A stretch of DNA of 64,000 nt from Hydrolagus affinis. Lineage: Eukaryota. Below, one piece after another: positions 34,913 to 35,884 of the stretch (its first letter is position 1; each line of letters opens with the position of its first letter). Position numbers and translations under genes: made by a program. The stretch covers positions 1 to 64,000 of the forward strand of contig JAAILG010000328.1 in the NCBI GenBank assembly GCA_012026655.1, read 5' to 3'. Below the pieces are notes generated by a model that was not told where the DNA came from, did no database searches, and worked only from the letters and a program-made list of their open reading frames with translations.

Positions 34913-35144
34913 GTAAGTATAGAACTTCTCTTGACACTGCTTGAAAATAGCATTTAAAAAGGAAATGTTCTCAATGTCCCACCTTCATGATGTATATGCA
35001 TAATTCCCTAGTTTTCTGTTTGTGGTTCTCGCATGTAGTAAGTAGCCCACCAATTGGAGATGGTATTTAGCGATATAATTCAACAGAATTCATAATTGTG
35101 CATGCATATTTAACAATTCCAATCCTGCTTTAATTTTAATGATA

Positions 35145-35750
35145 TCTCATTCATGCCTTCATTATGTCCAGGCTCGATTACGCCTATGCCCTGCTTGTCG
35201 GCCTTCCCAACTCCTCCCTCCATAGGCTGCAGAACATCCAGAACTCTGTGGCCCACGTCCTCTACCACTCCAAGCTCTGTGATCCCCCATCTCCCTTATT
35301 CTCACCCGACTCCATTGGCGCCCCATCACCCAGAGGATTCAATTAAAGATCCTGGTCCTCCCCTTTAAAAGCCCTTCATGGCCTTTCCCCACATTACCTC
35401 AGGAACCTCCTAACCCCATATCAATCTTCCCTCTCCCTCCACTCAGCAGGCTCTGGCCTGCTCCATGTCCTCCAACCCACCATCGGCGGGCGAGCCTTCA
35501 GCCACTCTGCCCCCAACCTCTGGAATTTCATCCCGCAATCCCTCTGCCTCACCACCTCCCTAGCCTCCTTCCAAGTCCCGCTTCAAGACCCTCCTCTTCG
35601 ATGGTTCTATTGGTCACCCCCTAAACCCCCCTTTCCCTCCATACTCCCTGATCCCAACTCCAGCCCGGGTCTGAAACACTGACTGTGCAGCACCTTGGGA
35701 CGTTCTCCCAACGTGAAAGGCGCTATACAAATGTAATTATTTTGTTGTTG
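35145..35750 (+). mobile_element. 5'-truncated L2 LINE filling the 3' part of TGFBR1 intron 7
   Basis: Encodes SRLDYAYALLVGLPNSSLHRLQNIQNSVAHVL (L2 ORF2 C-terminal region); ends in the family tail gcaccttgggacgttctcccaacgtgaaaggcgctatacaaatgtaattattttgttgttg. Confidence 0.92.
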
Positions 35751-35753
35751 TAG

Positions 35754-35884
35754 GTATTCATGAAGATTATCAGCTGCCTTACTATGACCTAGTACCTTCA
35801 GATCCTTCGATTGAGGAAATGAGAAAAGTGGTGTGTGAACAGAAGCTGCGGCCAAACATTCCTAATCGGTGGCAGAGTTGTGAG
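35754..35884 (+). CDS. TGFBR1: TGFBR1 exon 8
   Basis: ttgttgttgtag acceptor, GAG|gtcagt donor; 131 nt. Encodes [44 protein letters not shown]. Confidence 0.97.

Follow-up and report, generated by a model that had tools for sequence, protein, structure and literature searches.

The TGFBR1 locus and splicing of its penultimate exon

The analysed window, which is the whole stretch of 64,000 nt, harbours kinase exons of a type I receptor gene on the forward strand. These exons are closest to TGFBR1 among the type I receptors, in compared lists that hold no ACVR1B or ACVR1C chains. Exon mapping spans about 32700 to 37271, and the gene call rests on the kinase exons. The penultimate coding exon (35754-35884, + strand, 131 nt, phase 1) agrees in 42 of 43 residues with chain residues 221-263 of solved human TGFBR1 (ALK5). 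The kinase exon upstream of it (34788-34912, + strand, 125 nt), followed by a donor GT at 34913, agrees in 39 of 41 residues with chain residues 179-219. By the numbering of the human gene, we take these two to be exon 8 and exon 7, respectively. A single split codon links them (chain residues 219 and 221), and therefore the intron in between is fixed as 34913-35753, with a length of 841 nt. The last coding exon with the stop codon was found at 37146-37271 (+ strand), and further TGFBR1 exons near 32700-32868 and 34291-34449; all four neighbouring exons are open.

In the genome G000, exon 35754-35884 has seven matches, the only one at 100% being the window locus itself and the next one reaching 88%. 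All seven type I receptor loci of G000 possess an intron with an AG at the same phase-1 position, and therefore the position of the acceptor is old. Exonization, in which repeat sequence becomes a new exon, was not found at this locus, as the exon boundary is that of six paralogs and of solved TGFBR1.

Four of the 22 listed genome and RNA runs were compared over 34700-35930; their word shares were used neither as evidence nor as distance. The raw RNA reads of organism B (X21, about 27% read) reach a depth of 16 at 34888 in the upstream exon and of 14-19 in exon 35754-35884. Their depth is 1 at 34918, 1-2 over 34918-35027, and 0 at 35075, 35102, 35110 and 35137. Since depth is high in the exons and low in the intron, the intron is largely removed. 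Read depth and the in-frame exon join thus show in part that exon 35754-35884 is still spliced in. Run X12 (word share 0.16) covers repeat sequence only and neither exon, and is uninformative on expression.

The LINE copy in front of the exon

The original prediction had placed a retrotransposon tail directly upstream of exon 8, and tail and exon were both found where it had put them. The tail belongs to a 5′-truncated LINE copy of about 0.6 kb in sense orientation to TGFBR1 (35145-35751, + strand), whose 5′ end falls within 35140-35146 and whose 3′ end falls within 35747-35751, so that it terminates 2-6 nt upstream of the penultimate exon. As had also been described, no AG occurs in 35720-35751, the nearest ones being at 35662, 35689, 35718, 35752 and 35764. 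The AG-free LINE 3′ end with its TTG-repeat tail (35720-35747, + strand) comprises a U-rich tract and the candidate branch points A35736 (-18) and A35739 (-15). The segment 35739-35750 agrees with the family tail at ten of 12 positions, with the TTG units in register, and departs from it at 35739 and 35741.

The LINE 3′ boundary is ambiguous over 35748-35751, as the match of organism C, whose intron is without the element, begins at 35748. The last six intron bases including the AG (35748-35753, + strand; TTGTAG) are for this reason either host-derived or common to host and tail. The tail does abut the acceptor; however, about six bases, and not just the final three as proposed, are host or shared. 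Microhomology between tail and host over 35748-35751 is likely, and the start of the organism C match at 35748 fits the 3′ microhomology described for ZfL2-2 in the available part of PMC2666801. L2-clade elements leave target-site duplications of 3-5 bp or short truncations; at the ends of this LINE a duplication was sought, and nothing beyond 2-3-nt repeats was detected.

The whole window contains 20 matches to the LINE tail, among them the related tails that had been predicted, at 13769-13842 and 38778-38848 (+ strand) and at 36363 and 44505 (− strand). The copy 35145-35751 is 76-84% identical to other genomic copies; in 61 of 555 columns it departs from the letter that most of 29 copies have. 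A first look at G000 gave 5419 candidates of this family. The 5′ ends of 30 copies lie from about 190 to more than 1300 nt from the tail. Dispersed copies with a common 3′ end and variable 5′ truncation identify the family as a non-LTR retrotransposon (LINE). The longer copies run upstream into reverse transcriptase, whereas the window copy breaks off at about 35145. RVT_1 was detected in three of eight open pieces of these longer copies, once above the cut-off of Pfam; the Pfam scan of the window copy's own open piece (35147-35344) gave no match. We presume the family to be L2-like, from the resemblance of its ORF2 C-terminal peptide. An unselected DNA sample of 263.5 kb gave 79 tail matches and, with the window copy excluded, 46 of 78 were scored as TTG-type, which is a (TTG)n tail rather than poly(A), as in the L2 clade.

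Four of the 30 LINE copies, which were chosen for 3′ likeness to the window copy, share the same 5′ base break (window 35145, L006, L011 and L014), and their flanks are unrelated. This break lies 602 nt from the tail on L021, and L013 and L029 end nearby. The common break suggests, from sequence comparison, that these copies either form a short non-autonomous subfamily (about 605 nt) or were truncated at a hot spot; no further copy with the same break was found in the unselected DNA. Other repeat tails, or sequence resembling such tails, lie a short way upstream of the 5′ ends of L011, L013 and L014, which suggests nested insertion. Directly after the tail, TA was found in 15 of the 46 unselected tails (L068-L087 and the window), which may point to a preference of the endonuclease for certain target sites. 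Another short repeat, whose tail is of the TTA type and whose 3′ end motif recurs in the LINE, is also abundant and occurs at many sites in the window (9285-9430, 9817-9984, 13300-13470, 14560-14770, 48200-48470, 58990-59290 and others). It is probably the partner SINE of the LINE.

The next intron of TGFBR1 also harbours an older antisense copy of the same LINE family (36363-36953, − strand; 67.6% over 599 columns). Together, 35194-35748 (+ strand) and 36363-36953 (− strand) form an inverted pair that flanks the 131-nt exon. The predicted duplex of the antisense copy with 35690-35753 has an energy of -75.5 kcal/mol, and that with 35720-35753 has -26.7, whereas 200 random windows average -11.8 and go down to -29.2. 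According to this prediction, the inverted pair could mask the acceptor or promote skipping or back-splicing.

Comparison of the intron with organisms B and C

Record 2 of X11 (organism C; 500 nt, depth 6.66) aligns in two pieces: its letters 391-500 match 34855-34966, and its letters 43-219 match 35748-35924. Between 34966 and 35748 it possesses 171 letters, versus 781 in the window. The intron of organism C is thus 229 nt long versus 841 nt, and the difference of 612 nt, obtained by length arithmetic on one contig, equals the length of 35140-35751 or of 35136-35747. The original prediction had named a relative without the insertion as its check, and organism C, judged by these lengths, is such a relative. 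The 612 nt that its intron lacks also bear out that the LINE was inserted where an old exon had its 3′ splice region. A processed copy was ruled out for this record by the intron sequence on both sides of the exon.

A depth of 6.66 was also found at 35102 and 35110 and is absent at 35137. The equal depth makes it most likely that record 2 has a third piece as well, which starts at about 35089 and stops short of 35137. No match of organism C at 86% was detected for the intron middle (34967-35088), and therefore the stretch beside the insertion point is better conserved than the intron middle.

Record 16 of X9 (organism B) runs unbroken over 34700-35193 with 15 differing letters and crosses the LINE 5′ junction, and organism B therefore has the LINE. 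The host part of the intron, which predates the insertion, extends over 34913-35144 (+ strand), with X11 record 2 on 34855-34966 and X9 record 16 on 34700-35193. In intron sequence organism B is closer to the window than organism C is. Since presence of the LINE groups the closer pair, insertion is the simple reading, and the sequence comparison indicates that the LINE was likely inserted after the split from organism C. The LINE family itself is abundant in organism C too, with 24,118 matching records. Among 66 metagenome loci, the best 40 rows together with L088 and L089, at E 1e-5, included no close relative with an alignable intron.

The old splice signal

The stretch 35100-35145 (+ strand), with yTnAy adenines at 35113, 35133 and 35139, is likely an orphaned acceptor-proximal sequence. 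Within it, a T-rich stretch at 35109-35140 is present as predicted. The sequence upstream of the LINE 5′ end is covered in organism C at the depth of record 2 (at 35102 and 35110) and is likely the old acceptor-proximal sequence; however, the end of the T-rich stretch (35134-35140), which had been read as part of a pyrimidine tract, is perhaps a branch motif. The branch point that had been proposed, A35113, would sit near -31 in organism C if the unaligned stretch there holds no net indel, and is plausible as the old one.

The stretch 35100-35145 is colinear with positions -53 to -14 of the acceptor of L088. This locus and L089 are two near-identical, distant metagenome loci (98% alike), counted as one observation, and are 95% identical to the protein of exon 35754-35884. 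Their acceptors have an exact block of 11 and 12 nt in common with 35134-35145, whose end falls at -14 in these loci and coincides with the LINE 5′ junction in the window. Weaker colinear matches extend back to 35063. The block length was reached by 8 and 5 of 2000 Markov resamples and by 8 and 0 of 3000 random 57-mers, and the local score by 8 and 12 of 5000 random 80-mers. A score of 25 was also reached by two of 41 other acceptors, a set that includes duplicates and some intron-less loci. The L088/L089 match was noticed after the fact, and the aligned piece of organism C ends before the block.

These alignments are suggestive only of A35139 (-20 in L088) as the old branch adenine, with about 13 host bases after it. 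They are likewise suggestive only of a LINE that landed between the old branch point and a tract of few bases, which for the most part would have been lost or be hidden in the tail. The LINE did enter the old acceptor region, as the original prediction had it; L088 and L089 favour a position between branch point and tract and not the one between tract and AG that it had assumed. Two of the three old yTnAy motifs carry a T>G change in organism B (at 35110 and 35137), a weak sign in agreement with what is expected of disused motifs.

A GCATG-containing block at 35098-35106, presumably an RBFOX-type motif, also occurs about 50 nt before the acceptor in L088 and L089. At position 35102, inside this block, organisms B and C differ from the window.

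The probable present branch point and pyrimidine tract

The intron consists entirely of LINE sequence from -7 to about -608. Since the AGs at 35662, 35689 and 35718 intervene, a branch point upstream of 35662 is unlikely. On mechanistic grounds, LINE sequence after about 35706 most likely contains the present branch point, and the LINE tail likely serves as pyrimidine tract. Adenines with a T two bases upstream are found at -38, -18 and -15, and A35736 (-18), with a G at -3, is the best-placed candidate. The last 115 nt of the element have just two full yTnAy motifs, at -72 and -103, and the AG at 35718 lies downstream of both. The pyrimidine fraction at -25 to -5 is 0.57; six paralog acceptors range from 0.52 to 0.90, and the neighbouring TGFBR1 acceptors have 0.81 and 0.67. 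An extra conservation of the tail is not clear, as 35701-35737 has two differences versus a mean of 3.7, and six of the 29 other copies have at most two; this comparison has little power.

A hairpin was predicted just upstream of the tail (35691-35715, z = -0.61), where L2-clade elements have a stem-loop, and a branch site at -72 would be possible if this hairpin shortens the path. Shuffled sequences fold equally well, however, and the AG at 35718 is not clearly masked by the hairpin. The predicted folds of the acceptor and orphan regions likewise did not stand out from those of shuffled sequences (z of -0.28, -0.61 and +1.16).

We consider it probable that the LINE was inserted after the split from organism C and that its AG-free, U-rich tail now provides both the branch point and the U2AF tract before the host AG. 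The insertion would have been primed by pairing of the TTG tail with the last bases of the host through 4 nt of microhomology, with at most about 9 nt of host tract lost. The old branch region, pushed 612 nt upstream behind several new AGs, would have fallen out of use. U2 snRNP would take a LINE adenine, most likely A35736, and U2AF65 would bind the T4-(GTT)n stretch. With the exon still spliced in, the allele would have survived. The protein would be unchanged, and the event would be the rescue of an existing signal with no new function.

An unlikely alternative assigns the last 15 nt of the intron (35739-35753) to the host as its tract and AG. The LINE, primed on a host tract resembling its tail, would then end at about 35738 and give the branch point only. 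In L088 and L089 no more than 13 nt separate the counterpart of 35134-35145 from the exon, and these 13 nt start with A and a T-run like 35739-35743; the window departs from the family tail exactly at the first and third of these positions. This reading needs a net indel of 17 nt, and the unaligned stretch of 122 nt in organism C could hide such an indel. However, the match of organism C stops at 35748, and a conserved host tract should extend it. Three TTG units are also in register with the family tail, and the copies L019 and L022 likewise have an A at the equivalent of 35739. Moreover, L088 and L089 weigh as one observation only, with their score of 25 attained by other acceptors as well. 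The T-rich 35739-35747 is likely tail rather than retained host tract.

Continued use of the old branch region (35113-35139), with the LINE looped out or with a cryptic acceptor at AG 35170-35171, is very improbable. Good yTnAy motifs remain at 35113, 35133 and 35139, the sequence is AG-free between 35086 and 35170, and distant branch points exist, as the accessible portion of PMC7969005 describes. Nevertheless, distant branch points require an AG-free zone, and the LINE has many AGs. The T>G changes of organism B affect two of the three motifs, and its RNA depth is 0 at 35075-35137; past 35145 other copies pile up. The AG at 35170-35171, the first one after the orphaned motifs, lies inside the LINE behind an AG-free stretch of 84 nt and is similar to a cryptic acceptor.

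An ancestral LINE deleted in organism C, or a mis-assembly of X11 record 2, could be considered given that the absence is seen in one low-depth contig and the family is abundant in organism C, but it is highly unlikely, as the length missing there is that of the LINE to within a few bases and the 2-3-nt repeats at its ends are too short for a precise deletion or a k-mer skip.

Chance expectation and other LINE tails

The 46 unselected TTG tails are AG-free over a median of 27 nt up to the tail end. Directly after seven of them a YAG is found, one of the seven being a sister TTA-type tail, and the LINE family therefore often resembles an acceptor. The probability of a sense tail ending within a 4-nt window of a fixed site is 3.5e-4 (46 tails in 263.5 kb), a rare event for any single exon. 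A genome has roughly 2x10^5 acceptors. Under neutral insertion, about 70 such events per genome are expected before selection, and therefore one survivor is not improbable.

Exact tail+YAG+G sites number 38 in G000. A second case was sought at 30 of these, and no credible Pfam match was detected in 32 open frames of at least 20 aa; this Pfam test is blind, as the true exon P0001 is also without a match. No exon is evident behind L003 and L023, whose tails end like that of the window.

A broader claim would be that the LINE 3′ end is a ready-made 3′ splice signal, that sense insertions repair themselves, and that many constitutive exons are spliced by LINE tails. The features that would make it ready-made are the AG-free 3′ end, a TAAT motif, the U-rich repeat and the frequent YAG behind the tail. 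We regard this generalisation as quite doubtful. If true, the TTG tail would prime on TTG-containing tracts of the host, and TGFBR1 would be one case of a genome-wide turnover of splice signals.

Relevance and comparison with known systems

The TGFBR1 intron offers a before-and-after pair for an insertion that survived although it struck the core 3′ signals of a constitutive exon, in the gene of a conserved developmental receptor. Survival was apparently achieved by swapping in the LINE's own signals, which would be splice-signal turnover without protein change. The case raises the wider question of whether LINEs with repeat tails soften the harm that they do at acceptors, which a genome-wide count would show. 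The TGFBR1 LINE is a single neat instance and not a new principle. A literature search, mostly of titles and abstract openings and with few subscription papers, found no case of an old constitutive acceptor whose signals now come from a sense LINE tail.

In the available part of PMC7969005, MIR insertions in OGDH minigenes are described to add or remove branch points, and AGs more than about 8-12 nt past the branch point are chosen as acceptors. Similar to MIR in OGDH, the TGFBR1 LINE would be a retroposon whose insertion provided a host 3′ splice site with a branch point. However, the OGDH insertions were engineered and concern a mutually exclusive exon pair, whereas TGFBR1 has a natural insertion present in at least two organisms. 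In Alu exonization, according to the accessible text of PMC6326789, the U-tracts of antisense Alu act as polypyrimidine tract together with an acceptor. A repeat-derived U-rich tract would similarly take part in 3′ splice-site recognition at TGFBR1. In contrast to Alu, where a new and mostly alternative exon arises from an antisense element, TGFBR1 has a sense LINE tail before an old exon, the AG is that of the host, and the coding exon is free of repeat sequence.

The excerpt of PMC6108849 at hand lists 594 L2- and 150 CR1-derived exons in mammals and describes LINEs as depleted near constitutive exons. TGFBR1 has in common with these exons old LINE sequence as the source of splice signals. 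Nonetheless, the exons of that work are mostly alternative and lineage-specific, whereas at TGFBR1 the signals of an existing constitutive acceptor would have been replaced. Transposable elements within 20 bp of acceptors are, in the consulted part of PMC3088655, depleted and often mutagenic in human and mouse. The TGFBR1 LINE belongs to this class, with the difference that it is a survivor at 2-6 nt.

For zebrafish ZfL2-2, the available section of PMC2666801 gives microhomology at about 80% of 3′ junctions and short target truncation in five of 25 new insertions. The TGFBR1 LINE resembles ZfL2-1 and ZfL2-2 (PMC4245944, PMC2666801, as far as these were accessible) in its 5′ truncation and its likely 3′ microhomology with the repeat tail, and the 2-3-nt repeats at its ends would also fit their short or missing target duplication. 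It differs from them in that its L2 clade label is presumed from peptide resemblance. Repeat-derived splice signals are known from the sources cited above; their use by an old constitutive exon is a more unusual form.
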